Source of the DNA: an uncultured Acidimicrobiia bacterium
Lineage (GTDB): Bacteria > Actinomycetota > Acidimicrobiia > Acidimicrobiales > AC-14
Length of the DNA stretch: 64,000 nt
Assembly (NCBI GenBank): GCA_963836205.1
Contig: CAWIIV010000006.1
Coordinates: forward strand, 576,001-640,000
Reading direction: 5' to 3'
The notes beneath the pieces are model-generated. The model did no database searches. It was not told the DNA's origin and saw only the letters and a program-made list of their open reading frames with translations. A program made the translations under genes and the position numbers. Below are positions 20,207 through 37,393 of the stretch, piece after piece. The first letter of the stretch is position 1. The number at the start of each line of letters is the position of its first letter.

Positions 20207-20289
20207 CCGCCGCGACCCTACCGCCGACGGCGAACGCCCGAGTCCCCGCTTCCGTCCAGGTGCAGCGACGCGAAAGCGAGGACGATAGG

Positions 20290-20326
20290 TGTGCAGTTAT
20301 GTGGGCTCTACCGACCTAACTGCACA
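20290..20326. repeat. Intergenic inverted repeat (REP-like hairpin)
   Basis: TGTGCAGTTA (20290-20299) and TAACTGCACA (20317-20326): perfect 10-bp arms between divergent genes. Confidence 0.7.
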
Positions 20327-20473
20327 ACAACCACCAGGGTCGGGGTTGGCGGACCAGGCGGGGGCGGGCGGCGGGCTCGTGGCGATGAACCGCGAGCCCT
20401 GGGGGGTATCCTGGGCGGCCGACGATGCGTCACATTCACCCTACGACGACGCCTGCCGGGAGAGCGTAGGTAC

Positions 20474-21380
20474 ATGCGGGTGCTCGAAGAAGAGGTCGTG
20501 GCGACGCCCACGGGGAGAGGCAAGCCCCGGAAGCCACGCCTCTGGGCGGCCACCGTCGGCAGCGTCCGGGAGATGGCGGACGCCCGCAACCTGCTGGCCA
20601 ACCTGACCCTGCGCGAGCTCCGGGGCAAGTACAAGCGGTCGCTGCTCGGATGGGCGTGGTCGCTGGTGAACCCGTTGGCCACCATGGCCATCTTCGCGGT
20701 CGTCTTCGGGGTCTTCCTCAAGGTCGACGTGCCGCCCGGCGACCCCAGCGGCCTCGACGTCTTCGCCCTCTTCCTCCTGTGCGGGATCCTGCCGTGGAAC
20801 CTGGTGGCCAACGGCATGACCGGCTCCATGGGCACGATCCTGGCCAACTCCAACCTGATCAAGAAGGTCTACTTCCCCCGCCAGGTCCTTGTTGCGGCCA
20901 ACGTGGCCTCGTCGGTGGTCGCCTTCCTCATCGAGATGGCGGTGCTGGCCGTCGTCCTGCTCATCGCCGGCAACTTCGTGGTCCCCTGGCTGTTGCCGGT
21001 GGTCGCCCTGATGGCGGTGCAGGCGGTGTTCGTCCTCGGCATCGGCCTCGCCCTGGGCGTGCTCAACGTCTACTTCCGCGACGTCCAGCACTTCACCAGC
21101 ATCCTGCTCCAGATCTGGTTCTACGCCACCCCCGTCGTCTACCCGGTGTCGTTCGTCCCCCGCAACGCCCATCTTCTGGGCCTCACCATCCCGGTGCGGA
21201 CCATCTACGACCTCAACCCGATGGTCCGCTTCGTGGAGGTCTACCGCGACCTCCTCTACGACGTCCGGGCGCCGGCGGCGGGCGACCTCCTCTACCTCCT
21301 CGTCGTCTCCGTCGATCACCCTCGTCGTCGGGCTGATGGTGTTCGCCCGCCTCGAGCCCAAGCTGGCGGAGGAGCTGTGA
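20474..21380 (+). CDS. wzm: ABC-2 polysaccharide exporter permease (+1 frameshift near 21314)
   Basis: RELRGKYKRSLLGWAWSLVNPL, KKVYFPR, FYATPVVYP, LNPM. Removing one base at about 21314 restores ITLVVGLMVFARLEPKLAEEL*, overlapping the wzt start. Confidence 0.88.
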
Positions 21381-22595
21381 CCGAGGCGCCGCCGGCGGTC
21401 GTGGTCGACCACGTCACCAAGCGCTTCCGCCTCTACCACGAGCGCAACCAGCACCTGAAGAGCACGCTCCTACGCGGCCGGCGGGCCCGGTACGAGGAGT
21501 TCTTCGCCCTCCGCGACGTCGACCTCACCGTCCCCGAGGGCTCCACCTTCGGCCTCATCGGCGAGAACGGGTCGGGCAAGAGCACGCTCCTCAAGTGCAT
21601 GGCCCGCATCCTGCGCCCGGACGAGGGCCAGATCGAGGTCAAGGGCAAGGTGTCGGCCCTGCTCGAGTTGGGCGCCGGCTTCCACCCCGAGCTGTCGGGA
21701 CGGGAGAACGTGCAGCTCAACGGCTCGATCCTCGGCCTGGGCAAGAAGCAGATCGCGGCCAAGTTCGACGAGATCGTGGAGTTCGCCGGCCTGGAGCGGT
21801 TCATCGACACACCGGTGAAGAACTACTCGTCGGGCATGTACGTGCGGCTGGGCTTCTCGGTGGCCATCAACGTCGACCCCGACGTGCTCCTCGTCGACGA
21901 GGTCCTGGCCGTGGGCGACGAGAGCTTCCAGCGCAAGTGCAACGAGAAGTTCGCCGAGCTCAAGGCGGCCAAGAAGACGGTGGTGGTCGTGTCCCACGGG
22001 CTGTCGTCGATCCGCAGCCTGTGCGACCAGGTCGCCTGGCTCAAGGGTGGCGACCCTGCACGCCTGCGGCCCGGCCGGCGACGTGGTCGACCAGTACATC
22101 GACGAGGTCCACCCCGACCGCCAGCAGGTGGCCGGCTCCGGCACGAGGTGGGGGTCGGGCGAGGCCCGGGTCGACCGCATCGAGCTCATCGACGGTGCCG
22201 GCTCGCCCACGGGCAAGGTCCGCACCGGCGACCAGGTCACGTTCCGCTTCCACTACGTGATGAGCGAGCCCATCCCCCGGCCCGTCTTCGGGATGTCGAT
22301 CCACACCCTCGACGGCCAGCACGTCACCGGCCCCAACACCCGGGAGGCGGGCTGCGTCCCCGAGCGGCTGGAGGGGGAGGGCCACGTCGACCTGGTGGTG
22401 CCCGTCCTCATGCTCCTGCCCGGCACCTACGACGTGTCCACCGCCATCACCGACTACGCCACGCTCCACCAGTTCGACTTCCGCCACCGCACGTTCCGCT
22501 TCGACGTGGAGGCGGGCCAGCCCAAGGAGTCCTACGGCGGGGTCATGTCGCTCGGCGGGCTGTGGCAGATTCATGCCTTGGACGGAGGACTGTGA
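21377..22595 (+). CDS. wzt: ABC exporter ATPase with Wzt C-terminal carbohydrate-binding domain (+1 frameshift near 22050)
   Basis: GENGSGKST, LLELGAGFHPELSGREN, YSSGM, LLVDEVLAVGD; continues in ORF 22047..22595 (RWGSGEA...LLPGTY). Confidence 0.88.
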
Positions 22596-25036
22596 ACGCC
22601 AACCAACTCCACCCGGACAGGGTCTCGGTGGTCATCCTCCACGAGGGCGCCATCGCCGACACCATGGCCGGGCTCCACGCGGTGGCCGAGCTCGACTTCG
22701 ACGCCGACCGGGTGGAAGTCGTCCTGGTCGACGTGGGCACCCTCGGCGGCGCCGAAGGCCGGTTGCGGGAGTCGGCACCGGGCGCCGTCGTGGTGTCCCT
22801 GAAGTCCGACCCCGGGCGGGCGGAGGCCCTCAACCGGGCCGTCAAGGCGTGCACCGGAACCTCCGTCGCCTTCCTGGGGGCGGGCCACGTCCCCGACCGG
22901 CAGTGGCTCCGGGCGTCGCTCGACATCCTCGACCGCGACCACTCCGTCGCCTGCGTGGCCACCCGGGTGGAACGGGCCGGGGCCGGGGCCGGGGCCGGCG
23001 GGGCCTGGCCGCCCGCCGTGAACTTCCTCGGCCTCCCGGTGCCGGCCGAGATGGGGTCGACGGCTGCCTCCGGGGCGACCGTGCAGGACGTGCTCTACGC
23101 CCCGGTCGAGGCCATGGTCATCCGGGCCGACGTCTTCGACGCCATCGGCGGCTTCGACGCCCGTTACGAGCGGGGCCTGGAGGACGTCGACCTCGGGTGG
23201 CGGCTGTGGCTGCTCGGCCACCGGGTGGTCGCCGCGCCCGACGTGGCCGTCACCGGACCCCGCCTCGAGCCGGCCCCGCCCTCGGTGCGGGAGCAGTTCC
23301 TCCGGGAGCGCAACGCCCTCTTCACCATCTACAAGAACTACGACGACGCCAGCCTGGCCGCGGCCATGCCCGCCGCCCTCGCCCTCGGCGTCCGGCGGGG
23401 CGTCGTGCTCGGCGGCGACCAGCCCGGGCCGGCCACGACCGCGTCGCCCCAACTGGTGGCGTCGGCCCACGCCATCGACGCCTTCGTCGGCAGCCTGCAC
23501 GAGCTGGCGCCGGTGCGGAAAGCGCTCCAGGCCAACCGCCAGCGCACCGACCAGGAGATGATCCGACTCCTGCGCCTTCCCCTCGGGGCGGACCTCGACG
23601 ACCCCCGCTACCGGGTCGCCTTCGCCGAGGCCACCGCGTCCCTGGGCGTGCACGAGCGGTTCGGCAGCCGCCGCCGCATCGTGGTCGCCACCTGCGACAC
23701 GCTCACCCCAGCCATGGCCGGCCCCGCCATCCGGGCCTGGCAGATCGCGTCCGCCCTGTCGCTGGAGCACGAGGTGGAGCTGGTCACCACCTCGACCGCC
23801 ACCGTCACCCATCCCCGGTTCAAGGTGCGCTCGGTGAACGACCACGACCTGCGGGAGCTGGAGGAGTGGTGCGACGTCCTCCTCTTCCAGGGGTGGTTCC
23901 TCACCGGCCGGCCCTTCCTGCTCAAGTCCACCAAGGTCGTGGTGGCCGACATCTACGACCCCCTCCACCTGGAGCAGCTGGAGCAGGCCCGCGACGAGGG
24001 TGAGAAGCGGCGGGTGGAGCTGGTGTCGGAGGCGGTCGGGGTCCTCAACGAGCAGCTCATCCGGGGCGACTTCTTCCTGTGCGCCAGCGAGAAGCAGCGG
24101 GACTTCTGGCTGGGCCAGATGTCGGCCCTGGGCCGGGTCAACCCCCTCACCTACGACGAGGACGGCACCATGCGGTCGCTGATCGCGGTGGTTCCCTTCG
24201 GCATCTCCGACGCCCCGCCGGTGCACAGCCGCCCCGCGCTCAAGGGTGTCGTGCCTGGCATCGGCCTCGACGACAAGGTCATCCTCTGGGGCGGCGGCAT
24301 CTACAACTGGTTCGACCCCCTCACCCTGCTGCACGCGGTCGACCGCCTGCGCCGGCGGGTACCCAACGTGCGCCTGTTCTTCATGGGCCTCAAGCACCCC
24401 AACCCCGACATCCCCGAGATGCGGATGGCGGTGGCGGCCCGGGCCCTGTCCGACCAGCTCGGCCTCACCGGCACCCACGTGTTCTTCAACGAGGGATGGG
24501 TGGAGTACGAGGACCGGCAGAACTACCTGCTGGAGTCCGACATGGGGGTCAGCACCCACATCGACCACCTCGAGACGGCGATGTCGTTCCGCACCCGCAT
24601 CCTCGACTACCTGTGGGCGTCGATCCCGGTGGTGTGCACCGCCGGCGACTCGCTGGCCGACCTGGTGGAGTCGAGCGGGCTGGGGCTGACAGTCCCGTCG
24701 GGAGACGTGGAGGCGCTGGAGGCGGCCCTGTTCCGCATCCTCGACGACGAGGGCTTCCGCAAGGGATGCGTCGAGAACGTGGCCCAGGTGGTGCCCGGGC
24801 TGGTGTGGTCGCAGGGGCTGCGGCCGCTGGTGGAGTTCTGCCGGGCCCCCCGGCGGGCGCCCGACCTCCTCGACCACGACGCGGCCCACCACATGCGCCA
24901 CGACCTCGCCCCCGGCCGCAAGACCCTCGCCGGGTGGCGGCACGACCTGCGGACCGGCATCGACTACCTCCAGTGGGGCGGTCCCCGCCTGGTGGCGAAG
25001 AAGGTCCTGGGCCGAGTCCGCCGGCTTCTGTCCTGA
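22592..25036 (+). CDS. Bifunctional glycosyltransferase (GT2-like + GT4-like)
   Basis: GTG 22592 overlaps the wzt stop; GGFDARY..GLEDVDLGWR, MAGPAIR, DIYDP, WGGGIYNWFDP, SFRTRILDYLWA. Confidence 0.88.
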   Translation: MNANQLHPDRVSVVILHEGAIADTMAGLHAVAELDFDADRVEVVLVDVGTLGGAEGRLRESAPGAVVVSLKSDPGRAEALNRAVKACTGTSVAFLGAGHVPDRQWLRASLDILDRDHSVACVATRVERAGAGAGAGGAWPPAVNFLGLPVPAEMGSTAASGATVQDVLYAPVEAMVIRADVFDAIGGFDARYERGLEDVDLGWRLWLLGHRVVAAPDVAVTGPRLEPAPPSVREQFLRERNALFTIYKNYDDASLAAAMPAALALGVRRGVVLGGDQPGPATTASPQLVASAHAIDAFVGSLHELAPVRKALQANRQRTDQEMIRLLRLPLGADLDDPRYRVAFAEATASLGVHERFGSRRRIVVATCDTLTPAMAGPAIRAWQIASALSLEHEVELVTTSTATVTHPRFKVRSVNDHDLRELEEWCDVLLFQGWFLTGRPFLLKSTKVVVADIYDPLHLEQLEQARDEGEKRRVELVSEAVGVLNEQLIRGDFFLCASEKQRDFWLGQMSALGRVNPLTYDEDGTMRSLIAVVPFGISDAPPVHSRPALKGVVPGIGLDDKVILWGGGIYNWFDPLTLLHAVDRLRRRVPNVRLFFMGLKHPNPDIPEMRMAVAARALSDQLGLTGTHVFFNEGWVEYEDRQNYLLESDMGVSTHIDHLETAMSFRTRILDYLWASIPVVCTAGDSLADLVESSGLGLTVPSGDVEALEAALFRILDDEGFRKGCVENVAQVVPGLVWSQGLRPLVEFCRAPRRAPDLLDHDAAHHMRHDLAPGRKTLAGWRHDLRTGIDYLQWGGPRLVAKKVLGRVRRLLS

Positions 25037-25053: not shown

Positions 25054-26562
25054 GTGGGCGCGGCCGTGGGGCCGGCGCTGGTCCTGCTCGCCGCCGCCGT
25101 AGTGTTGGCGGGCTGGGTCTTCACCAACCCCGTGGGCGGCTCGCCCGACGAGCTCAACCACGTGCTGCGGGCGGAGGCCGTGGGGCGGGGCGACCTGGCG
25201 GGTCGGCCCAACCCCGAGCTGGAGGCGCACGGCGCCGACGAACGGGTGGTCAAGTCGTGCTGCGAGACCGACAACCCGGCCCGCCTGCGGTGGGTCCGGC
25301 GGGGGGCCCGCATGGTGAAGGTCCCCGCCGCCCTCGACTTCGGGGCGTGCTTCGACGAGAGCGCCGGGTACGTCGCCCGGTGCGTGGCCGACGGGCGGGG
25401 GCCGGTGCCGGCCGAGCGGCTGACGACCATGGGGACCTTGGAGCCGGTGCCCTACCTGGTTCCGGGCGTGGCGACCCGGTTCGCCGACACTCCCGTGGCT
25501 GCCGTCCGGTGGGCGCGGGCGGCCAACGCCCTGGTGACGCTCGTGCTGCTGGCGCTGGCCGCCTGGGTCCTGCGGTCACCGGGGGGGCCGCTGGCCTGGC
25601 TGGGGCTGCTGGCCGCGGTGAGCCCCATGGTGCTGTTCGTGGGGGCGTCGCCCGCTCCCAGCGCGCTGGAGGTGAGCGGCGGCATCTGCTTCGCCGCCGG
25701 CCTGATCCGGCTGGCCCGGGCGCCCGACCAGGCGGCGACGGCATCGGTGTGGGCGACCCTGGCCGTGGGCGGGATGGCGCTGGCGGCCAGCCGGTCGCTG
25801 GGCCCGGTGTGGGTCGTCTTCGACGTGGCCGCGGTGACCGCCCTGGTCGGGCCCGGCCGGTTTTGGCGCACGGCCCGCGCCGGCGGGGCTTGGGCAGTGG
25901 GGGCGGTGGTGGCGGTGGTGGCCGCCGGAGCCGCGACCGCGGGGTGGGAGCTGACCCACCAGCCGGGCGTCCCCTTCGACGGGGGGTTCTTCCTCAACCA
26001 GCTCGGTCCGTCGATCGCCGACCTGCCCCGGGTGCAGCAGGAGCTGGTGGGCGTGTTCGGATCGGTCGACGTCCCCCTGCCCGGCCCCGCCCGGTGGGCG
26101 TGGACGGCGATGCTGCTGGGCCTGGTCGTGACCGCGTTCACGCTCGGCAGCCGGCGGCAGCGCACCGTGCTGGCCGCGGCCGCAGTGGGGGTGGTCGTCG
26201 TCACCGTGCTCGTGTCGTCGGCCTTCCTCCGCCAGAACGGCTTCCAGGTCCAGGGCCGCCACGTGCTCGCCTTCGCCGTGCTCCTCCCCCTGCTGGCGGG
26301 CGAGGTCGTCCACACCCGACGTCGCCGCCTGCCCCGCCGGCTGTCCTCGGAGGTCCTCATAGGCGGGGCGGTCGCGCTGGCCGTTGTGATCCACCTGGTC
26401 GGGCTCGACGCCAGCCTCCGCCACTTCACGGGACCCGACCACGCCCCGGCGGTGCTCCTCGTCCCCTGGTGGATCGAGGTTCTCGCCGGCGCGGCCATCG
26501 GCGGGGCGTGGCTTTGGCGGAGACAGATGAGTTCGCGACCGGCTATTCGTCGAAGCCCGTGA
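25054..26562 (+). CDS. DUF2142-like GT-C membrane protein
   Basis: GSPDELNHVLRA loop, multiple TM helices, QGRH motif. Start approximate. Confidence 0.78.
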   Translation: MGAAVGPALVLLAAAVVLAGWVFTNPVGGSPDELNHVLRAEAVGRGDLAGRPNPELEAHGADERVVKSCCETDNPARLRWVRRGARMVKVPAALDFGACFDESAGYVARCVADGRGPVPAERLTTMGTLEPVPYLVPGVATRFADTPVAAVRWARAANALVTLVLLALAAWVLRSPGGPLAWLGLLAAVSPMVLFVGASPAPSALEVSGGICFAAGLIRLARAPDQAATASVWATLAVGGMALAASRSLGPVWVVFDVAAVTALVGPGRFWRTARAGGAWAVGAVVAVVAAGAATAGWELTHQPGVPFDGGFFLNQLGPSIADLPRVQQELVGVFGSVDVPLPGPARWAWTAMLLGLVVTAFTLGSRRQRTVLAAAAVGVVVVTVLVSSAFLRQNGFQVQGRHVLAFAVLLPLLAGEVVHTRRRRLPRRLSSEVLIGGAVALAVVIHLVGLDASLRHFTGPDHAPAVLLVPWWIEVLAGAAIGGAWLWRRQMSSRPAIRRSP

Positions 26563-26594
26563 CATCGTTCGTGGAGCGCGACCAAGGAGCCACC

Positions 26595-27419
26595 ATGCCG
26601 ACACGAGACACCGCCCCCATCGGAGCGCCCTGCTGGGTCGACCTGATGACGTCCGACCAGGAGCGGGCCCGCGACTTCTACGGCCAGGTCTTCGGCTGGA
26701 CCGCCTCCGAGTCGTCCGAGGAGTTCGGCGGCTACTTCTCGTTCAGCAAGGAGGGGGCTTTGGTCGCCGGCGGCATGCCCCAGCAGCCGGGCTCGGAGCA
26801 GCCCGACGTGTGGTCGATCTACCTGGCCACCGACGACGCGGCCAAGACCGTCGAGACGGCCACCGCCAACGGCGGGCAGGTCCAGGTCGACGTCATGGTC
26901 ATCGCCGACCAGGGCACGATGGCCTACGTCATCGACCCGGGCGGGGCCATGATCGGGATCTGGCAGCCCGACGTCCACAAGGGATTCGGCATCCACGGCG
27001 AGCCGGGGACGCCGAGCTGGTTCGAGCTGCACACCCGCGACTTCGACGCTTCCGTCGCCTTCTACCGCACCGTGTTCCGCGACGAGATCCAAGTCGGCAG
27101 CGACACCCCCGAGTTCCGCTACACGATGCTCGCCGACGGCGAGACGGGGCTGGCCGGGATCATGGACGCCTCCGGCTTCCTCCCCGAGGGGGTTCCCGCC
27201 CATTGGTCGGTGTACTTCGGGGTCGACGACGTCGACGCCTCCCTGGCCAAGATCGTCGAACTGGGCGGCTCGATCGTGCAGCCGGCGGAGGACACGCCCT
27301 ACGGCCGCCTCGCGTCCGCCACCGACCCAATGGGCGCCCAGTTCAAGCTCGTCGGCCCCAACGCGGCCCCGCCGGCCGACGCCGACGCCGGCGCCGGAGC
27401 CGACGCCTCGTCCGCCTAG
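26595..27419 (+). CDS. VOC/glyoxalase family protein (two domains)
   Basis: GAPCWVDLMTSD, FYGQVFGW, DPGGAMIGIWQ, PSWFELHT, DTPYGR; AAGGAG RBS. Confidence 0.92.
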   Translation: MPTRDTAPIGAPCWVDLMTSDQERARDFYGQVFGWTASESSEEFGGYFSFSKEGALVAGGMPQQPGSEQPDVWSIYLATDDAAKTVETATANGGQVQVDVMVIADQGTMAYVIDPGGAMIGIWQPDVHKGFGIHGEPGTPSWFELHTRDFDASVAFYRTVFRDEIQVGSDTPEFRYTMLADGETGLAGIMDASGFLPEGVPAHWSVYFGVDDVDASLAKIVELGGSIVQPAEDTPYGRLASATDPMGAQFKLVGPNAAPPADADAGAGADASSA

Positions 27420-28273
27420 TCGCTCCGCACCACTGACCCGCCGGTGGATCCCGTCGTCGGGGTCCGCCGGCGGGCCACGCCCACGCCCTTGAAGAAGTTG
27501 TAGACGAACACCCCGTCCGCCTCGGTCGTGCGGTGGAGGGCGCGGATGCCGGCGTCGAACCGGTCGGCCTCGATCAGACCGGCCTCGATGGCGGGCCGGC
27601 GGATGCCCTCGACCATGGCGGTGAAGGTCTTGCGGGTGAAGCCGTCGACCAGGTCGGGCCGGTTGGCGTCGATGTAGACCATCAGCGGCCGGACCCGCAC
27701 GTCGCCGAAACCGGCGTCCGCCAGGAGCGGATAGAGCCGGCGCCCGATCAGGCCGTCGCCGCCCGCCGCCCGTTGGAGGGTGACCAGGCAGTCGATCGCC
27801 TCGTAGGCCGAGGGGTCGTCGGGATGGAAGTACGTCGAGCCGTGGTCGCCCTCGACCACGGTGATCGTGCCTCCCGGCCGGAGCAGCCGGCTGAGCACCG
27901 CCAACGCCTCCGCCGGCCGGGACAGGTGCTCGAGGACGAAGCAGACGAACACGTGGTCGAAGGACCCAGGAGAAAAGGGCAGGTCGTAGAGGTCGGCCTG
28001 CCGCAGCTCGACGTTGGTGAGCCCCAGCCGTTCGACCTTCGCCCTGGCCTCGGCGAGGGACTCGGGGGAGACGTCGACCGACACGAACCGGGCGTCGGGG
28101 CTGCGCCGGGCAAGGGTCACAGTCTGGGCGCCGACCCCGCAGCCCGCTTCGAGGACGAGGCTCCCGGCCGGATAGGCGGTGTCGGCGTGGAGCAGGTCGA
28201 CGAGCGTCCCCGCCTGGTCCTCCAACCGCTCGTGCTCCCGCCGGTCGTACCCGTGGACGTACATCTCGCTCAC
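27416..28273 (-). CDS. SAM-dependent methyltransferase
   Basis: YVHGY, VLEAGCGVG, SFDHVFVCFVLEHL, LLRPGG. Confidence 0.9.
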   Translation of the reverse strand: MSEMYVHGYDRREHERLEDQAGTLVDLLHADTAYPAGSLVLEAGCGVGAQTVTLARRSPDARFVSVDVSPESLAEARAKVERLGLTNVELRQADLYDLPFSPGSFDHVFVCFVLEHLSRPAEALAVLSRLLRPGGTITVVEGDHGSTYFHPDDPSAYEAIDCLVTLQRAAGGDGLIGRRLYPLLADAGFGDVRVRPLMVYIDANRPDLVDGFTRKTFTAMVEGIRRPAIEAGLIEADRFDAGIRALHRTTEADGVFVYNFFKGVGVARRRTPTTGSTGGSVVRSD

Positions 28274-28485
28274 CGCCGCGGCCCGGTTGCGGGGTGGCCG
28301 GCGTCGTCCAGGGTCGAAAACATCCCCACGAGACTGGCATGCGGTCGCGAGCGACCGAGCGACCGGCCGGGGCGCCGATTTCGGCTCGGTGTATCAGCAG
28401 GGCACCTCACCGACTCTTTCACCCAAGAACGAAGTGCGGGATGTCCGGGAGTCGGGCAGTTCGACCGCACATGGGGGGTAACGGG

Positions 28486-31400
28486 ATGGCGGCAGTCCTC
28501 CTCGTCTGGCTGCGGTACACGCTGCTCGGCGGAGCGATGCTTTTGGGCTGGTTGCGGCGCGTCTTCTATTCCGGCTGGCGACGGCCATTGGCCTGGCTGG
28601 CCGTCGTCGCGGCCGGGATGTGGGTCCTCGTGAACCCGGGCCCAGTGGGCGGCGGGTGGTGGAAGATCGAGCCGGTGCTCGGCGTCTATGCCGTTCTCGT
28701 ATCGATCCGCTGGATCTGGAAGGCCAGGACCCGTCTCGTCATCGGCACCTTCATCGACTACCGGCTCGACAAGCCCACGCCTCTGCCGGGCCTCAGCGCC
28801 CTGCTGCAAGTGGAGCTCGGCCGCCTCTACGACCTGGTCAACCTCGTCGACCAGAATCGCGCCGTCCCCGACATCCTGCGCGGCCCGCAGAGCGTGTCCT
28901 TCGACGAGCAGCGCACCCTGGACGAGGCCGAGGACGATCCCAATCTCATCGTGGACGAACCCCTCGACGTCCCCGCCCCCATGATGGCGGAGGACCTCAC
29001 CGAAGTCCTCGACGCCGCCCTCAGCGTCGAGGCGACGATGCTGGTCGGGCGGGTGAAGATCCCCATCGGCGCCCTCGCCGGCCTCGTCGGCCGTCTGGCC
29101 CAGGGGCCTCGGCTCAGCGGTTCCCTGCACCGCACCGACCAGGGCCTCGTCCTCACCGCCCGAACGGTCGGCACCGCCCAGGCCCGGACCTGGCGGGTCG
29201 ACGGCGCACCGGCGACCGCCGGAGAGGGCGATCCCGAGGAGTGGCCCGAGGCACTTCTCGACGAGCTGGCGGTGCGCATCTTCACCGATCTCGCCCTCGA
29301 GGGATCGGTGAAGTGGCAGGCGACGTGGGCCTACGTCAAGGGCCTGCGCGCCTACCGGGGCTCCCTCCGCACGAGGAAGGACCGCCGGCTCGGCCTGGAG
29401 CGGGCCAAGGACCATTTCATCGAGACCATTGCCGAGGACGAGCGGTTCGACCTGGCCCACTACAACCTGGGCGTGGTGGCGACCGAGCTCAGCCAGAAAG
29501 AGGCGGCGGAGTCCGCGTTCCTGGCCGCCATCCGGTTGAACAACCAGCGGTGGGCCCCGTACTACGGCCTGGCCCAGCTGTATTTCGCCAACGATCGCCA
29601 CGACGAGGTGCTGCCCCTGTGCGGTCGCATCCTCCACCTCCGCCAGCACCGGGCGGAGGCGTACCACCTGCGAGCGCTCAGCAACCGCCGCAACCGAGAC
29701 CTGGACGCGGCCATGAAGGACAGGAATGCCGCCGCCCGCTGTTCGTGGCTCAGACTCTGCGGGGCCGTCGTCCAGGGCCGGGAGAGCGACGCCCGGAAGC
29801 TGGCCGCCACCAGCCTGCGGAACCTGGGCTGCCTCCGGGCCTACGACGCCAAGCGGAAGTGGCCGGCGCTCGAGGCTCCGGGGAACGAGGACAAGGAACG
29901 GAGGTCGCTACGACTCCGGCTGGGCTACCTGGCCGCGGCCAAGGAGCTGAAGCAGGGTCGCTTCGTCAACCCGTCCGACGCCGAGCTCCATTTCGAGCTG
30001 GGAAAGATCTACGCCGCCCGGAGGCAGTGGTTGCGGGCCGCCCGCCAGTTGGAGAAGGCGGTGGAGATCGATCCCGATCGGCCCCGCTTCTGGATTCAGT
30101 TGGCACGGGCCTACGCCGGACCCCGCTCCGATCGTCAGCGTCGACTGTGCCAGCGGCGGGCGTTGTTCGCCTCGGAACGGGCCCGGACCCAGCCGTCGTT
30201 GATCGTCGACCAGGGTTTCGAACGCCTGAAGAAGGTCTACACCCGGTTGGAATGTGACGAACACCTCAGCCAGGTACGAGAGCTGCAGGAGTTCGAGAAC
30301 GACCGCCGCACGTGGAACGGGACGGTCCCATCGAGCCCCGAACTGGAGAGGCGCCTGTCGGGGCTGAAGTCGGGGCCGGTGTGGGAGAGGACCCAGGTCT
30401 GCGTCCAGCTGGCGGAGCGCTACCTCGACGTGATCGACAAGAAGCGGGCCTCGCGCGTTGCCGATCTCCTGGCCGACAACCTCGAAGACCTGCGCCGCCA
30501 CCACCCGCGTGAGGTGAAGGAGAACCACATCTACGCCTTGGTTGCGGAAGCCCTCCACGCGGCCGACCGCGACACCGACGCGCTGCGCTATGGCGAAGCG
30601 GCTGTCTTCTACGACCCTCTGAGCGCCCGGGCGCGCAAGGCCCTGGCCGCGGTGTACGCAACTCTGGGGCACTTCGAGCAGGCCACCGACGCGTGGCGGG
30701 CCGCCCTTGTCTGCGACCCCGATGGCCCCGACACCAACCTCGCCCTGGGTGAGACCCTCATGCGCCACGCCCTCGGATCTCCGGAGTCGGACGCCCGCCG
30801 GGCGATGTTCACCGAGGCCACGACCTACCTGCGCAGTGCGCTCAAGCTCGCCGCCGTCTCAGGCATCTCGACCGGACCCCGGGACGGCGCGTCGAAGATG
30901 TCGGAGATCGAGGGCAGAGCGCGCTTCTGGCTCGGTCGGGCCGCCTTCGAGCTGGACGTCTACGAGCAGGCCGTCACCCATCTGCAGGTCTGCGTAACGC
31001 TCGACCACGAGCCCCTTCTGGCCCGTCTCCGGCTCGGAGTCGCCTACCTGCGCATGGGTCACGTGTGCGACGGAGAGCGCGTCCTGGCGGAGATCAAGAG
31101 CTACGCCGAAGCCATGGCGTCGTCACCGCAGAACGGATCGACCATCGTCGGGCCCCTCGGCGACAGGCTGACGGTCAGAGAGGTGCTGGCGTGGGCGAGG
31201 GTCTACCTGGCCGGTTCGCGCATCGAGCGGGATGTCGACCTGGAGGACGCGATCAAGGACATCCGGGAAGTCGCCGCGAAGGCCCGGTCAAAGTCCGACG
31301 GCGGCACTTCGCCGGGCCTGCTGGCGGCGTGCGCGGACAAGGAGGGGTGGGCCCGATTCCTGCTCAACGAGCACGAGCGCGCCGTCGAGAAGTTGCAGGA

Positions 31401-31653
31401 GTCGATTCGACTGGAGCCCACCGCCGAGGCCTACCTCCACCTCGCCCAGGTGCACGCAAACCGGGCGCTCGACACCACGGCACCGGCCAAACGCCTCCGC
31501 GACGAGACCCGCGCCCGGCACTACGGCGAGTTCGCTCGGAGCCTGGGCCTGGGATCCCAACAGGCTGAGCCCCTCGATCGCCTCATCCGACGCCTCGATG
31601 TCGAAGGGCCCCCGCAACAGGACTCGTGCCCGGCGCTCCTCCACGTTCTCTAG
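28486..31653 (+). CDS. Large TPR-repeat protein with N-terminal TM segments
   Basis: Hydrophobic N-terminus, then repeated TPR-like helices (AHYNLG, PYYGLA, LHFELG, TNLALG, ARFWLG, AYLHLA). Confidence 0.85.
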   Translation: MAAVLLVWLRYTLLGGAMLLGWLRRVFYSGWRRPLAWLAVVAAGMWVLVNPGPVGGGWWKIEPVLGVYAVLVSIRWIWKARTRLVIGTFIDYRLDKPTPLPGLSALLQVELGRLYDLVNLVDQNRAVPDILRGPQSVSFDEQRTLDEAEDDPNLIVDEPLDVPAPMMAEDLTEVLDAALSVEATMLVGRVKIPIGALAGLVGRLAQGPRLSGSLHRTDQGLVLTARTVGTAQARTWRVDGAPATAGEGDPEEWPEALLDELAVRIFTDLALEGSVKWQATWAYVKGLRAYRGSLRTRKDRRLGLERAKDHFIETIAEDERFDLAHYNLGVVATELSQKEAAESAFLAAIRLNNQRWAPYYGLAQLYFANDRHDEVLPLCGRILHLRQHRAEAYHLRALSNRRNRDLDAAMKDRNAAARCSWLRLCGAVVQGRESDARKLAATSLRNLGCLRAYDAKRKWPALEAPGNEDKERRSLRLRLGYLAAAKELKQGRFVNPSDAELHFELGKIYAARRQWLRAARQLEKAVEIDPDRPRFWIQLARAYAGPRSDRQRRLCQRRALFASERARTQPSLIVDQGFERLKKVYTRLECDEHLSQVRELQEFENDRRTWNGTVPSSPELERRLSGLKSGPVWERTQVCVQLAERYLDVIDKKRASRVADLLADNLEDLRRHHPREVKENHIYALVAEALHAADRDTDALRYGEAAVFYDPLSARARKALAAVYATLGHFEQATDAWRAALVCDPDGPDTNLALGETLMRHALGSPESDARRAMFTEATTYLRSALKLAAVSGISTGPRDGASKMSEIEGRARFWLGRAAFELDVYEQAVTHLQVCVTLDHEPLLARLRLGVAYLRMGHVCDGERVLAEIKSYAEAMASSPQNGSTIVGPLGDRLTVREVLAWARVYLAGSRIERDVDLEDAIKDIREVAAKARSKSDGGTSPGLLAACADKEGWARFLLNEHERAVEKLQESIRLEPTAEAYLHLAQVHANRALDTTAPAKRLRDETRARHYGEFARSLGLGSQQAEPLDRLIRRLDVEGPPQQDSCPALLHVL

Positions 31654-31802
31654 CAACCGTCTGATTTGTCAAGAGTCCTGCGGACCGCGGTGAAATAGGC
31701 GTCCGTTGTCGGGCGCGTCGATCCGGGTGCGGGGTGCTCCCCCCTTTTCGGCGGCCTCCCTGCGGCAGCACGCTGACTTACGCGACCTCGCACGAGGGCG
31801 GG

Positions 31803-32180
31803 TCAGATGTGGTCGACCTCGATCTTGCCCGCCGCCCCAAGCCGGAGGTAACAGACCGTGTGGACCGCGAACACAGAGGCAGCGAACTCGTCGTCGTTAG
31901 CCCATCGGGTGTAGATCGCGCCCTGCTTATTGAGAACCTCCCCCACGGCAAGCATGGCCTGACCGGTCGCGTCGACGCTCGCCAGGGCCTGATGCCTCGG
32001 GATGCGGTGCCGCTTGAAGACGGCGTTACTTTGGCCGAGCACCGCGACCCAATCCTCGAGTTCGACGCCATCTTGCCGAACCAGGTCCATCACGCCGCAC
32101 ATGCCATGGCCGTTCATTCGCAGGTACGCAGCCGGGGAAAGGTGTTGCAAGGTGATGGCTATCGCCTCTTCCAGGCCCAT
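31803..32180 (-). CDS. Hypothetical cargo protein (125 aa)
   Basis: ATG 32180, globular-looking composition, lower GC; its TGA lies in the junction with the IS right-end remnant. Confidence 0.55.
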   Translation of the reverse strand: MGLEEAIAITLQHLSPAAYLRMNGHGMCGVMDLVRQDGVELEDWVAVLGQSNAVFKRHRIPRHQALASVDATGQAMLAVGEVLNKQGAIYTRWANDDEFAASVFAVHTVCYLRLGAAGKIEVDHI

Positions 32181-32992
32181 CCGGGCCCGAACGGAACTCC
32201 GATCTGGTCTCGCCCGGCCCAACGCCTCAGAGCGCGCTGAACGAGCTGCTCCCCGCTCGGGGAACTGCTGCCGACGCCCGAAGCCGGCAGCCCGGGGGGG
32301 GCCTGTTGGGCTGTCGCAGGAGGCCGTGGCGCAGGCGCGGTAGGTTTCACCGGCCAGTCCTCCCCAGCAGCCGCATTTCGCCAGGTGCGGTCATTCTGGT
32401 ATCGGGGCACGATCTCCTTGCCAGTGAAGCCAAGGACCTCCTCAAGGATCAGCCTGATCGGAGCAGGCCCGGGGAGGCGGGCGAGGGATTCGCTCAGTCC
32501 GTCCTCACCGGGAGCGACGATGGCGACCTCCAGTTCGTCATACTCGAGTCGACAGGCAGCTGCCCGAGCTTCGATCCCAGCGGCAGCGAGCCGATCATTC
32601 GCTGCATCGAGCGCCGCGGCGAGCCGCTGGACGGCCGACCCGCCGACCCGTTGGGCGGGCCTTTGCTCGGATTTCGGAGTAGCACGGCCGACTTCCCCCG
32701 TTGGACGGGGTCTAGCTGGAGGCCCGCCCGATGAACTTCGGACCCTGATGTAGCTGGCGCTGGAGCGACCGTCGCCGTCTACCCCGACGACGGTCAGGCC
32801 TTCCCGCTGAAGGCGTTCGACGGCGAGGTCGGTAAGAACATCCAACCGGTAGCGGATAGGGAAGTCAGTCGATCGCACCGCCACGACAAATTCTCCCTGC
32901 CCGCCATTGGCAGCCTCGCGTGCCTGCCGGTCGATCTCAGCGAAGCCCCGTCCGAGCCCGTCCGAGCCGGTCAGCTTCGAAAACAGCCCCAC
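32159..32992 (-). CDS. Hypothetical cargo protein
   Basis: GGGAGG RBS, MGLFSKL start, lower-GC codons; the C-terminal part may be spurious. Confidence 0.6.
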   Translation of the reverse strand: MGLFSKLTGSDGLGRGFAEIDRQAREAANGGQGEFVVAVRSTDFPIRYRLDVLTDLAVERLQREGLTVVGVDGDGRSSASYIRVRSSSGGPPARPRPTGEVGRATPKSEQRPAQRVGGSAVQRLAAALDAANDRLAAAGIEARAAACRLEYDELEVAIVAPGEDGLSESLARLPGPAPIRLILEEVLGFTGKEIVPRYQNDRTWRNAAAGEDWPVKPTAPAPRPPATAQQAPPGLPASGVGSSSPSGEQLVQRALRRWAGRDQIGVPFGPGWAWKRR

Positions 32993-33122
32993 GTTTCCCT
33001 CCCAATTCAGTGCCCATCACGGTCGCCAGAGAACGCTGATACACCTCCGACAGGGTCCCCCACTCGCTTGAGCAGGGGTCCCAGCGTGGAGTCGGCAACC
33101 CCGACCTCACAGGAGGATTCCG

Positions 33123-34526
33123 ATGGCCCACGTTGGAGGACAGCTTCAAGCGCAGTTCATGGCCCGTATCCGCGGGCGTGACCCCGAGCGTTGCCTGGTG
33201 GTGCCCGTCGACGTCGGCAAGTCGTCGGCGATGGCGCTCGTCGCCGACCACTACGGCGAGATGGTCGTGGCGCCCTTCGAGTTCGTCCTCACCGAGACCG
33301 GGTTCGCGGTGCTGTCGGGAGCGATCGCCCGGGCCGAGGCGACGCGCTCGGCCGAGGTCGTGCGGGTCGGGGTGGAATCGGCCGGGCACTACCACCGCAC
33401 GCTCGTGGCCCGCCTGCGGGCCGGCGGCCACGAGGTCGTCGAGCTCAACCCGGCGGCGGTGAAGGAGGCCCGGTCCCAGCAGCTGCTGCGCCGCCTCAAG
33501 AGCGACGCCCGGGACCTGGGGGCGATGGCCGAGCTGATGATCCGTGGCGCCGGCCGCCCCCCGGCGGTGCGCACCGACGCCCTGGCCACCCAGGGCGCAT
33601 GGGTCGCCCACCGCCGGCGCAAGGTGTCGGCCCGGGTGGCGCTGGCCAACCAGGTCATCGGCCAGCTCGACCTGGTCTTCCCCGGCCTCGACGGCTGCTT
33701 CTCCGACCTGCTCGGCGCCCGCGCCGGGCGGGTGATCGTCACCCACATCTGCGACCCCGACCGCGTCCGGCGCCAGGGGATCGAGGGCCTGCGTCGCTTC
33801 GTGGCCCGACGAGGCGTGACGCTGTCGGGGCCCAAGGCCACCCAGGTTGTCGAGGCGGCCCGGGTGGCGCTGCGCCTGCCAGCCGCAGAGCGGGCCGTCC
33901 TGGGCAGGGTCTTAGCCGCTGACCTGGCTCTTCTCGCCAGCCTCGAGGCCGGGATCGTCGCCGCCGAGGTGTCCCTGGCCGAGGTCCTGGCGGACACCCC
34001 GGCGCGGATACTGACCTCCCTGCCCGGGGTGGCGGTGGTGCGGGCCTCGAACTACGGCGCCGGCATCGGCGACCCGGCCCGGTTCCCGAACGCGGCCGCC
34101 GCCTACCGGGCGGCGGGCCTGGTCCCGACGCTGTACGAGTCGGCCGGGAGATCCCGGTCCCGCCAGCACATCAGCCGGGAAGGCTCCGTCGAGCTGCGCC
34201 AGGCGATCATCGAGCTCGGCCGGGGCCTGGCCCAGCACGAGGCCGACTTCCGCCACTACCGCCGCCGGATCCTCGACTCGGGCAAGCCGGCCTCGGTGGC
34301 GGCCGTCGCCGTCGGCCATCGGGCCCACCGCCTGGCCTTCGCCATGCTGCGCGACCAGTTGCCCTACGACCCGGCCCGATGGACCGAGTCGGTGGCGGCG
34401 GGCATGACCGCCATGGCGAAGACCCGACGGGCCCACCAGAACGACGTGACGTGCCCGCCGCCGGCCACCAGCGTGCCCGAAGGGGGTGAGGCCGACAACA
34501 CCACCGCCAGACGCTCTCGGGGCTGA
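33123..34526 (+). CDS. IS110 family transposase/recombinase (DEDD RuvC-like + Tnp domain)
   Basis: VPVDVGK, VGVESAGHY, KSDARD, LTSLPGV, AGLVP..YESAG, ISREGSVELR; AGGAGG RBS. Confidence 0.95.
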   Translation: MAHVGGQLQAQFMARIRGRDPERCLVVPVDVGKSSAMALVADHYGEMVVAPFEFVLTETGFAVLSGAIARAEATRSAEVVRVGVESAGHYHRTLVARLRAGGHEVVELNPAAVKEARSQQLLRRLKSDARDLGAMAELMIRGAGRPPAVRTDALATQGAWVAHRRRKVSARVALANQVIGQLDLVFPGLDGCFSDLLGARAGRVIVTHICDPDRVRRQGIEGLRRFVARRGVTLSGPKATQVVEAARVALRLPAAERAVLGRVLAADLALLASLEAGIVAAEVSLAEVLADTPARILTSLPGVAVVRASNYGAGIGDPARFPNAAAAYRAAGLVPTLYESAGRSRSRQHISREGSVELRQAIIELGRGLAQHEADFRHYRRRILDSGKPASVAAVAVGHRAHRLAFAMLRDQLPYDPARWTESVAAGMTAMAKTRRAHQNDVTCPPPATSVPEGGEADNTTARRSRG

Positions 34527-34700
34527 AACGCCCCGAGATCGGCGGCGGGGGGCCCGGACCGATGTCGAGTGCGCTACGACGTCCTTCGGGAACGTCGCTT
34601 CTAGCATGACGCCGGGTCCCTCCCACTGAAGCGAGCGCGAACGTGGTTGCCTGACCCGCCCTCGGGCGAGGTCGCGTATGTCAGCGTGTGCCGCGAGGGA
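34390..34700 (+). ncRNA. Candidate IS110 bridge RNA (target- and donor-binding loops)
   Basis: Stem 34394-34404/34452-34462. Stem 34551-34557/34612-34618 encloses CGCT, a UUCG hairpin and TCTAG. A loop GGTTGC-CT, hairpin, GTATGTCAG spans 34645-34684. These segments match the element junctions. Expression not shown. Confidence 0.65.
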
Positions 34701-34826
34701 GGCCGCCGAACCGGAAATCACCCCGAACCGGATCGACGCGCCCCTCGACGGACGCCTACTTCACCGCGGCTCCACAAGACTGTTGACAAACCAGACGGTT
34801 GCTAGACCCGAGTGGTCAAAGGGTGC

Positions 34827-35104
34827 CTACGTGCTCTTCGTGCGGCTCCACTCCCAGTTGCCGGGGCCGCTGTCCCACCAAACATGCCACCCGGGGAAGC
34901 TGGAGCCGCTGGAGGGGAAGATCAACAGCTTGGTCACGGCTTTTCCGAAGTCGTAGAAGGCGCCGACGTCCGCCTTGCCGCCGTTGAAGTCACCGACCAC
35001 CGGCTTCGTGCGGCTCCACTCCCAGTTGCCGGGGCCGCTGTCCCCACCAAACCTGCCATCCTGGAAACCCACTGCCGCTGGAAATGAACACCAAGAGCTT
35101 GGTG
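34827..35104 (-). pseudogene. Fragment of an FG-GAP/VCBS-like repeat protein (two near-identical repeats)
   Basis: WWDSGPGNWEWSRTK appears twice (one copy with a frameshift) around PVVGDFNGGKADVGAFYDFG. Confidence 0.7.
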
Positions 35105-35390
35105 TGCCGCGCCACGAGCGTGCGGTGGTAGTGCCCGACCGACTCCACCCCGACCCGCACGATCTCGGCCGAGCGTGCCGCCTCGGCCCGGGCGATCGAG
35201 GCCGCCAGTACCGCGAAGCGGGTCTCGGTGAGGGCGAACTCGAACGGAGCCACAACCATCTCGCCGTAGTGGTCGGCGACCAACCCATCGCCGCCGACCT
35301 GCCGACCGGCACCACCAGGCAGCACTCGAGGTCCCGCCCGCGGATGCGTGCCATGAACTGCGCTTGGAGCTGTCCTCCAACATGGGCCAT
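35105..35390 (-). pseudogene. Truncated, frameshifted N-terminus of an IS110 transposase
   Basis: MAHVGGQLQAQFMARIRGRD...LVADHYGEMVVAPFEF...VGVESVGHYHRTLVAR, nearly identical to 33123 onward, with small deletions. Confidence 0.9.
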
Positions 35391-35574
35391 CGGATGTCCT
35401 CCTGTGAGAGTCGGTTGCCGACTCCACGCTGGGGGGGCCCTGCTCAGGTCGAGTGGGGGACCCTATCGAAGGTGCATCAGCGGCGAGGGCCAAGGGGGGA
35501 CGAAACGGCGCCGCCGACGACGGAAGGGGCCGCCTCGACGACATCGTCGCTCGGGACGGCGGACGCCCCTTCGA

Positions 35575-35904
35575 GCGGCGTGCGCGGACAAGGAGGGGTG
35601 GGCCCGTTTCCAGCTCAACGACCACGAGCGCGCCGTCGAGAAGTTGCAAGAGTCGATTCGACTGGAGCCCACCGCCGAGGCCTACCTCCACCTCGCCCAG
35701 GTGCACGCAAACCGGGCGCTCGACACCACCGCACCGGCCAAACGCCTCCGCGACGAGTCCCGCGCCCGGCACTACGGCGAGTTCGCTCGGAGCCTGGGCC
35801 TGGGATCCCAACAGGCTGAGCCCCTCGATCGCCTCATCCGACGCCTCGATGTCGAAGGGCCCCCGCAACAGGACTCGTGCCCGGCGCTCCTCCACGTTCT
35901 CTAG
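35575..35904 (+). repeat. 330-bp direct duplication of the TPR gene 3' end (31324-31653)
   Basis: Colinear at offset 4251 with about 6 substitutions seen by eye; ends in the same TAG. Confidence 0.95.
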
Positions 35905-36118
35905 CGGCCTGTGGCCCCCGGCGGACGGCAGGGTCCGCCTCGACGACCTCGCCACTCGGACGGGCGGGCGACCTTCGGCCCACGGACCGCCGTTAGTATC
36001 CGGATCGCCCCCGCCGCCCGTCGGCCGAACGTCCCGGAGCCGTCCCGCGCCCTCCCCCGCCAACCGCGCCGACACCCCCAGCCGGCTCCGGCAGTGGGCC
36101 CGGGCCTCGGAGGGCACG

Positions 36119-37393
36119 GTGGCCATCGCCGCCGGGCTGATGGTGCTCGGCCTCACCGCCTACGGCTTCCTGGTCATCGCCGCCCGGGCGCTGGGCCCCG
36201 AGGCCTACGCCCCCTTGTCAGCCCTGTGGGCGATCGTCTTCCTCGTCGGACCGGGTTGCTTCATCCCCATCGAGCAGGAGCTGGCTCGCAGCCTGGCTGC
36301 CCGGCGGGCCGCGGGCCTGGGCGGGGGGCCGGTGATCCGGCGGGCGGCGGCCCTCGGCGGCGGTGCCCTCCTGTTCCTCACCGTGGCCTGCACCGTGGCC
36401 GGCGTGGTCCTCCTCGACCAGCTGTTCGACGGCGAGGCCCTGCTCGTGGTGGGCCTGCTCCTGTCCCTGGCCGGGTACTACGCCGAGCACCTGGCCCGGG
36501 GCGTCCTCGCCGGCTACGGACGGTTCCGGCCCTACGGCATCGCCCTCGCCACCGAGGGCACCCTGCGCCTGGTGGGCTGCGCCGTCCTGGCCGTCCTCGG
36601 CGTGGCCACCGCCGGCGCCTACGGCATCGTCCTCGGCGCCGCACCCCTGGTCGCCACCGCCGTCGCCCTGCGGGGCCAGCACGACCTCGCACCCCCGGGC
36701 CCCGAGGCCGACCGGCGGGAGCTCACGGTGGCCCTGGGCTGGCTGCTGGCCGGATCGGTGCTGGCCCAGGCTCTGGCCAACGCCGGGCCGGTGGCGGTGA
36801 AACTCCTGGCCGACGACAACGAGCGGGCCGTGGCCGGACGCTTCCTGGCCGCCCTCATCGTGGCCCGGGTGCCCCTGTTCCTCTTCACCGCCGTCCTCGC
36901 CCCCGCCCTCCCCCGCCTGGCCCGGATGGCGGCCGCCGGCGACCGCCGGGGCTTCGACGCCGGCCTCCGCCGCCTGCTGGCGCTGGTGGCGGCCCTGAGC
37001 ACGGCCGGCATCCTCGGCGCCCTGGTCGCCGGCCCCACCGTCGTGCGCACACTCTTCGGGGCCGACTTCGAGCTGCCCGCCCACGACCTCGCCACCCTGG
37101 CCGTGGCCTGCGCCGCCTACCTGTTCGCCATGACGTTGGCCCAGGCCCTCATCGCCGTCTCCGGCCACGGCCGGGTGGCGATGGCCTGGCTGGCGGGCGT
37201 GGTGTCGTTCGGAATCGTCACCGCCCTCGGGTCCGACCTCCTCACCCGGGTCGAGCTGGGGATGGTGGCCGGCGGGGTGGTATCGGCGGTGGCCATGGCC
37301 GGGCTCCTCCTCCCCCTCCTCCACCACCGGGTGGGACCGACCCCGTCGGCGGCGGGGCTCCTCACCTCGCCGCCCCCGGGGATGACGCCGTGA
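36119..37393 (+). CDS. Oligosaccharide flippase (Wzx/MOP-like)
   Basis: RALGPEAYAPLSALW, PIEQELAR, ARVPLFLF; about 12 TM segments. Start may be somewhat upstream. Confidence 0.8.
   Translation: MAIAAGLMVLGLTAYGFLVIAARALGPEAYAPLSALWAIVFLVGPGCFIPIEQELARSLAARRAAGLGGGPVIRRAAALGGGALLFLTVACTVAGVVLLDQLFDGEALLVVGLLLSLAGYYAEHLARGVLAGYGRFRPYGIALATEGTLRLVGCAVLAVLGVATAGAYGIVLGAAPLVATAVALRGQHDLAPPGPEADRRELTVALGWLLAGSVLAQALANAGPVAVKLLADDNERAVAGRFLAALIVARVPLFLFTAVLAPALPRLARMAAAGDRRGFDAGLRRLLALVAALSTAGILGALVAGPTVVRTLFGADFELPAHDLATLAVACAAYLFAMTLAQALIAVSGHGRVAMAWLAGVVSFGIVTALGSDLLTRVELGMVAGGVVSAVAMAGLLLPLLHHRVGPTPSAAGLLTSPPPGMTP

Follow-up and report, generated by a model that had tools for sequence, protein, structure and literature searches.

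The window analysed here, a whole stretch of 64,000 nucleotides (nt), comes from an uncultured Acidimicrobiia bacterium (contig CAWIIV010000006.1, positions 576,001 to 640,000 of the forward strand, in assembly GCA_963836205.1, a draft of 25 contigs with 88.6% completeness). Near its middle, an insertion sequence (IS) of the IS110 family sits at the 3′ end of a gene for a TPR protein of 1119 residues (28294-31653, + strand). This element, which we call B, is reduced to a right-end remnant at 31649-31806 and a left-end remnant at 35108-35482, both on the − strand. The two arms form a shell around 1528 bp of foreign DNA, into which a second, intact IS110-family element of 1773 bp, IS-A (33034-34806, + strand), is nested. 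An earlier reading of the window, made from the letters alone and referred to below as the sequence-only reading, had described the arrangement as a cargo-carrying, transposase-dead IS110 derivative with an autonomous copy inside it.

BLAST searches against the genome aligned the left-end remnant of B with positions 1-379 of IS-A (86.7% identity, E 1.7e-125; 333 of 384 columns identical, 14 gaps) and the right-end remnant with positions 1618-1773 (86.3% identity, E 6e-44; 138 of 160 columns identical, 6 gaps). Both arms are inverted and equally diverged from IS-A. With a similarity far beyond chance they are real, and the sequence-only reading was right in seeing inverted left and right IS110 ends here. 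The choice of their outer boundaries, 31649 or 31653 on one side and 35482 on the other, depends on how the shared core is counted. The left arm retains ~95 N-terminal codons of the transposase gene, whose start is frameshifted by gaps of 6 nt and 1 nt, in agreement with the decayed transposase N terminus noticed earlier. IS positions 380-1617 (1238 bp) are gone from B, and with them the greater part of the transposase gene as well as the 5′ half of a conserved 3′ non-coding region, and the foreign DNA and the nested IS-A lie between the arms instead, so that the claimed replacement of the IS interior also held. At its termini B is identical to IS-A, over CGCTGA at the left end and over the final 15 nt at the right end.

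The target of B, CGCTAGA, overlaps the stop codon of the TPR gene, whose TAG lies inside it. Joining the outer flanks of B, which are the TPR 3′ end and a homologue of the stretch that follows the unoccupied site described below, restores CGCTAGA. Because the arms flank the two target halves in the order and orientation of a single element, the view that they derive from one site-specific insertion at one target is supported, as the sequence-only reading had claimed. The region 31649-35482 thus presents two donor ends of one element on either side of one target, together with an identifiable empty site. It has no intact recombinase and guide RNA of its own, the nested IS-A alone being intact.

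The target region itself is duplicated in tandem, in units of ~0.42 kb. The first unit, split by the shell, consists of the TPR 3′ end (31317-31652, +) on the left outer flank and of the right outer flank (ds1; 35483-35567, +). The second (35568-35988) comprises another copy of the TPR 3′ end (35568-35903, +), without the upstream gene body and ending in an unoccupied CGCTAGA site (35897-35908), followed by the stretch after this site (ds2; 35904-35988, +), and same-genus homology resumes at 35988-36033. The coding halves of the units (31324-31652 and 35575-35903) are 98% identical, and the downstream halves (35510-35565 and 35914-35970) only 79% identical over 57 nt. This contrast could reflect a different allelic source of each unit, or a coding part that underwent gene conversion. 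The 12-mer that the sequence-only reading took as the uninterrupted copy is indeed present at 35897-35908. It belongs to the second tandem unit, however, and is thus a paralogue 4.25 kb away rather than an independent empty allele in another genome.

IS-A, which sits at a CGCTAGA site in the foreign DNA, has a transposase gene of 467 codons (33123-34526, +), and the nested autonomous copy proposed earlier is thereby borne out. Pfam recognised an N-terminal DEDD_Tnp_IS110 domain (PF01548, E 9e-24) and a C-terminal Transposase_20 domain (PF02371, E 9.5e-14) in the protein, and NCBIfam model NF033542 (transpos_IS110) scored 145.3 bits against a cut-off of 140. BLAST identified two further copies in the genome, 100% and 99.9% identical to the nested one, on contigs C15 and C14; this near identity of the three copies indicates that IS-A moved recently. 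At all three IS-A copies and at the B shell, the sequence between the flanks reads CGCT...GCTAGA, with CGCTAGA contiguous at the empty site. IS-A therefore shows site-specific insertion of the IS110 type, with no target duplication beyond the short shared core. Its relatives in other metagenome-assembled genomes (MAGs), the nearest of which are Acidimicrobiales/Acidimicrobiia MAGs, have the same end pattern. No terminal or subterminal inverted repeat was found in IS-A: the best candidate between its first and last 80 nt has 9 nt and was equalled in 278 of 500 shuffles. A same-genus relative (L002/L023; G001:C7:862779-864514) is 89% identical to IS-A; its frame is broken by indels, and it aligns only up to IS-A position 1735, with no right end to be recognised.

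Durrant et al. 2024 reportedly described bridge-RNA guidance of IS110-type elements. The 280-bp 3′ non-coding region of IS-A (34527-34806, +) contains three guide-like segments. TCTAGC at IS position 1567 is the reverse complement of the core plus the right target flank, GGTTGC at 1612 is identical to the right end at 1764, and TCAGCG at 1648 is the reverse complement of the left end. The region is conserved among relatives (loci L014, L015, L022 and L023), and at L022 a two-sided change was found, the first segment reading GTAGC and the right junction GCTAC. The three segments and this matched change fit the guide-RNA mechanism of the superfamily (Siddiquee et al. 2024, PMC11187229). We infer that members of this IS family are guided by an RNA made from the 3′ non-coding region, in which a candidate guide RNA is located. 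No Rfam family matched the candidate in a scan of 31000-36500, which returned only a chance microRNA match (E 0.29). Close to the right end of IS-A lies a TTGACA hexamer, and joining of the IS ends would put 17 nt between it and a weak -10-like hexamer of the left end. This spacing is only suggestive of a promoter that could form upon joining; in a scan of the region for promoters and terminators, the number of sites was not above that in shuffles. The non-coding region also contains, at 34668-34680, the sequence AGGCCGC, which is the left flank of the unoccupied site (35890-35902). By eye, this match is better than those of the left flanks at the three sites occupied by IS-A, and the unoccupied site may be a good, still unused IS-A target.

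Of the guide-like segments, the first and the second are missing from the right arm of B, as are ~60 nt conserved in five of five intact relatives. Since this arm starts at position 1618 and the transposase is broken, the shell cannot supply an RNA or an enzyme of its own. The claim that both recombination ends were kept is correct for the terminal bases and is weakened by the loss of the 5′ half of the putative guide-RNA region. Conversely, the termini of B equal those of IS-A at the guide-matched bases, which makes their recognition by the IS-A machinery plausible.

The foreign DNA stands out by its composition. The GC content between 31600 and 33100 is 0.64-0.69, compared with 0.70-0.77 in IS-A and 0.75-0.78 downstream, and the foreign genes have a GC content at third codon positions of 0.70-0.78, compared with 0.87-0.94 in neighbouring genes. 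Adjacent to the left arm lies the 3′ fragment of an FG-GAP/VCBS gene (34827-35107, −), with 93 codons, the native stop and an internal 168-bp repeat. Scans of the 93-residue fragment alone gave no match in Pfam (E<=0.01) or NCBIfam. Its FG-GAP origin, put forward by the sequence-only reading, was established through its homologues, as 13 of the 14 longer ones carry PF01839 and/or PF13517. The best homologue, P0028 (736 residues), has 74% identity to the fragment and shares its native C-terminal end; the fragment is therefore the tail of a gene, cut inside a repeat. A perfect direct repeat of 41 nt occurs in the fragment at 34836-34876 and 35004-35044, 168 bp apart, and P0028 likewise has near-identical tandem repeats of 57 residues.

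The rest of the foreign sequence is occupied by two open reading frames (ORFs) that resemble parts of one hypothetical gene. ORF277 (32159-32992, −) corresponds to its N-terminal and middle domains and ORF139 (31803-32222, −), whose stop codon overlaps the first bases of the B right arm, to its C-terminal domain. In a homologue, P0009 (273 residues), one uninterrupted frame encodes the N-terminal domain of ORF277, the motif of its tail and a domain like that of ORF139. The C-terminal half of P0009 matches ORF139 with 46% identity over 121 residues, and the two end together. The ORFs are thus probably a single gene whose frame was lost near 32181-32184, with an overlapping gene pair as a possible alternative. 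The sequence-only reading had called two lower-GC ORFs here, of which the lower GC content was confirmed and the number probably has to be reduced to one frameshifted gene.

The searches assigned no function to this gene. A full HMMER scan with ORF277 returned 26 proteins at E<=0.001, one of them the record of the query itself, with 41% identity for the best relative. Thirteen of these 26 proteins were scanned with Pfam, and none has a domain in the part aligned with ORF277. For ORF139 and ORF277 themselves, scans with Pfam, NCBIfam and PADLOC yielded nothing, a word-based homologue search with both returned self matches alone, and a protein atlas search with ORF139 gave no usable match. An AlphaFold model of ORF277 has two confident small alpha/beta domains (mean predicted local distance difference test score, 78), and its comparison with PDB structures gave no match at E<=0.001, the best one having an E value of 0.0088. 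The family to which ORF277 and ORF139 belong is rare and unnamed. Its members, nearly all from short metagenome contigs, combine the N-terminal domain with the middle domain or with an ORF139-like domain, and some have zinc-ribbon additions.

The 1528 bp are one contiguous-looking chromosomal piece of another organism, which comprises a gene tail, a short spacer and a hypothetical gene up to its own stop codon. As it consists of a gene fragment, a spacer and a probably broken gene, the "cargo" is a stretch of another chromosome without a working set of genes.

The sequence-only reading had proposed a search of the genome and of relatives for the B ends around other cargo. BLAST showed the foreign DNA and both B arms to be single-copy in the genome, and the foreign DNA was absent from all 40 of the 40 relatives searched, among which G015, G017 and G023 gave chance-level matches alone. 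In a search for the B lineage, IS-A was at least as close to B as any of 10 genome loci. A 23-nt word specific to the B right end occurred at three metagenome loci, all of which are other family members, 70-76% identical to B. ORF277 was found in one of 401 genomes of the class, namely its own among 400 others, with two marginal matches at E~1e-3. The 24-nt junction word, for which an exact match was required, had no match in the metagenome collection, and in the plasmid collection neither the DNA of 31653-33033 nor the ORF139 protein had a counterpart. Soil metagenomes are the only sequencing runs with words in common with the locus, and five of them share 5-11% of its sampled words. The four that were examined carry contigs of IS relatives, and one 502-nt soil contig covers 31200-31543; no contig in these four runs extends across the foreign DNA or either shell junction, the foreign DNA being covered by faint partial matches of low identity only. 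The same body was thus not found in more than one context in the genome, the relatives, the genomes of the class or the metagenome scan, and we have no evidence that the shell is mobile. These negatives are weak, as the lineage is known mainly from MAGs and the genome collections hold one genome per species.

Typical non-autonomous derivatives of insertion sequences are short and multi-copy, with their ends kept and their transposase lost. The shell resembles them, and nested relics, in its preserved ends, its lost transposase and the active relative inside it, but differs in being single-copy and enlarged by unrelated DNA. Closer parallels are found among the expanded IS110 loci, natural cargo-bearing and repeatedly re-inserted loci described by Hu et al. 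(bioRxiv 10.64898/2026.08.14.744561). As reported for those, the shell has its ends at a definable target with an empty-site counterpart and extra DNA inside; re-insertion into an occupied locus, an adjacent tandem duplication and a one-sided, end-like internal boundary are also shared. In contrast, the loci of that preprint were chosen for an IS110-domain gene of their own, and many have read or circle support. The transposase of the shell is dead, the sole intact one residing in the nested, inverted and 13%-diverged IS-A, and where adaptive cargo would be, the shell has a gene fragment and a probably broken gene. The sequence-only reading considered cargo transport by IS110 ends to be little described. 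This does not hold, given the cargo-bearing loci of that preprint and the report that cargo between IS ends moves when transposase and seekRNA are supplied (PMC11187229). With cargo-bearing and nested IS110 loci already described (Hu et al.), the novelty of the present one is modest.

IS-A itself is similar to the seekRNA/bridge-RNA elements of the IS1111 and IS110 types (PMC11187229), with which it shares a DEDD/RuvC-like and a Transposase_20 domain and a strict, short target. Further common traits are the lack of terminal inverted repeats and of a target duplication that exceeds the shared core, a long non-coding region with short matches to target and ends, and a TTGACA near the right end. 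As in IS1111, the non-coding region lies downstream of the transposase gene; no subterminal inverted repeat was found, and IS-A does not qualify as a member of IS1111. Unlike those elements, its transposase is long, with 467 residues, and its guide RNA is deduced from sequence only. A further likeness, to ISPpu9 (Pares-Guillen et al. 2025, PMC12288879), resides in a 3′ module between repeated end-like boxes that could act as a unit of its own: here, a GGTTGC stands on either side of the final 156 bp of the IS. The modules of ISPpu9 are reported as circles and as separate copies, whereas no solo 156-bp module was found in this genome.

We consider that this locus is probably the gutted shell of one old IS110-family insertion, a decaying relic and not a working gene-carrying vehicle. 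According to this scenario, a diverged element of the B lineage would have inserted at CGCTAGA on the TPR stop codon, inverted with respect to the + strand. Its interior (positions 380-1617) would then have been lost and replaced by the 1528 bp of lower-GC foreign DNA, and the active IS-A would later have inserted at a CGCTAGA in the spacer of the foreign DNA. IS-A would in principle be able to excise and re-insert the 3.8-kb unit in trans; we judge that this has not detectably occurred. We also judge that the relic sits in a rearrangement-prone, strain-specific island.

Several observations weigh against this scenario. The conservation of both B termini at exactly the bases needed would also fit a unit that was kept mobile. 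The lack of other copies is weak evidence for a relic, and none of the sequencing runs contains the strain, so that they have no bearing on circles, empty sites or the assembly. The contrast between the 98% and 79% identities of the duplicated target halves is left without explanation. In addition, the position of the inner breakpoint on the right side is a hint that a recombinase, and not random decay, made this joint. The right arm of B begins at IS-A position 1618, exactly after the internal GGTTGC of intact relatives, and opens with CT. In the right-end orientation, GGTTGC occurs only twice in the 1773 bp of IS-A, at this internal position and at the true right end. The coincidence was noticed post hoc and concerns one junction only, as the other inner junction (35107/35108) has no comparable end-like motif. 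In L025, a relative from a metagenome, IS-A positions 1584-1642 are missing, and the internal GGTTGC with them.

This breakpoint is the basis of one alternative, in which the recombinase itself captured the foreign DNA and linked it, through a guide-RNA half-match event at the internal GGTTGC-CT, to the final 156 bp of the IS; the shell seen now would be the outcome, possibly following a deletion between repeated left arms. Precedents exist, since one-sided donor-end matches are reported to be enriched at internal boundaries of expanded IS110 loci, as are partial circles that reuse one true terminus (Hu et al.), and ISPpu9 makes circles of its sub-modules (PMC12288879). We nevertheless regard such a capture as unlikely, because it rests on a single junction recognised after the fact and is not mirrored at 35107/35108, because the foreign-side bases at the right junction do not resemble a donor end, and because no intermediate or sister product was found. 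To a similar degree we doubt that the shell is a functioning non-autonomous derivative that carries genes and is mobilised as a unit in trans by the nested or other copies of IS-A, as the sequence-only reading suggested. That suggestion is sound insofar as both B ends are present at one target and their termini, CGCTGA on the left and GGTTGCTAGA on the right, are kept and identical to those of IS-A where the guide-like segments match. IS-A is active in the genome, and parts of the requirements are documented elsewhere: seekRNA-dependent transposition of cargo between IS ends is reported for the superfamily, with a deleted non-coding region complemented from a separate plasmid (PMC11187229), and natural cargo-bearing IS110 loci and a circle of 9.2 kb have been described (Hu et al.). 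The suggestion is countered by the shell being single-copy and in no other genome or context searched, by the 13-14% divergence of its arms from IS-A, accompanied by indels and resembling neutral decay, and by contents that amount to a truncated gene and a probably frameshifted one. Moreover, the inner IS-A is inverted with respect to the shell, so that its own ends compete for the recombinase, and whole-unit mobility is reported to fall with size, elements with truncated recombinases being inactive in the assay of Hu et al.

A combination of the two preceding ideas, i.e., a transposase-less cassette whose DNA was captured through a half-match at the right-end look-alike and that is still movable by its nested relative, appears quite unlikely to us. 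Still less probable is an origin of the arms from two IS copies that were joined by rearrangement in the duplicated target, or through misassembly of the MAG across repeats. The tandem target unit with its unequal halves, the strain-specific, rearranged surroundings and the draft state of the assembly would be compatible with it. Against two insertions, the arms are ordered and oriented as in one element, show matching levels of identity to IS-A (87% and 86%) and flank exactly the two halves of one target. A misassembly is disfavoured as well, since arms ~87% identical to IS-A would not have collapsed with it during assembly, and the three near-identical IS-A copies were resolved within contigs of 277-683 kb. 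Among these readings, that of a gutted, decaying shell is the one we retain, and we judge the breakpoint at the internal end look-alike to be the one detail worth follow-up.

As it stands, the locus is a clean, well-delimited case of IS decay, replacement by foreign DNA and re-insertion in a variable island. It also provides a usable description of a little-studied Acidimicrobiia IS110 lineage, covering the CGCTAGA target, the 3′ guide region and the guide-like segments. If the cassette reading were true, the locus would be a worked example, from an uncultured soil member of the Acidimicrobiia, of how minimal elements become gene carriers. Were the shell shown to move, it would be a compact example from nature of DNA that is mobilised in trans between IS110 ends, and the breakpoint would point to the guide-RNA region itself as a recombination site. 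Such a result would bear on the growth of bridge-RNA elements and on the off-target behaviour of bridge recombinases.

The surroundings of the shell are variable. In five same-genus genomes, the homologues of ~26300-27377 and of 35988-36033 are only 85-2450 bp apart, which makes ~8.6 kb (about 27400-35990) strain-specific among the genomes searched. This island comprises a gene for an S-adenosylmethionine (SAM)-methyltransferase-like protein (27416-28273, −), the TPR gene, the IS shell and the second target unit. No integrase was seen among its ORFs; an integrase-borne origin was considered only, with no dedicated search. LytR-CpsA-Psr, ABC-transporter and glycosyltransferase functions are encoded around the island, whose site is a variable spot in a cell-envelope glycan locus. 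Further upstream, an open frame of 1643 codons (20105-25036, +) encodes an ABC-2 membrane domain, an ABC ATPase domain and a pair of glycosyltransferase domains. This frame may represent a fusion, or a simple ORF call may have run several genes together.

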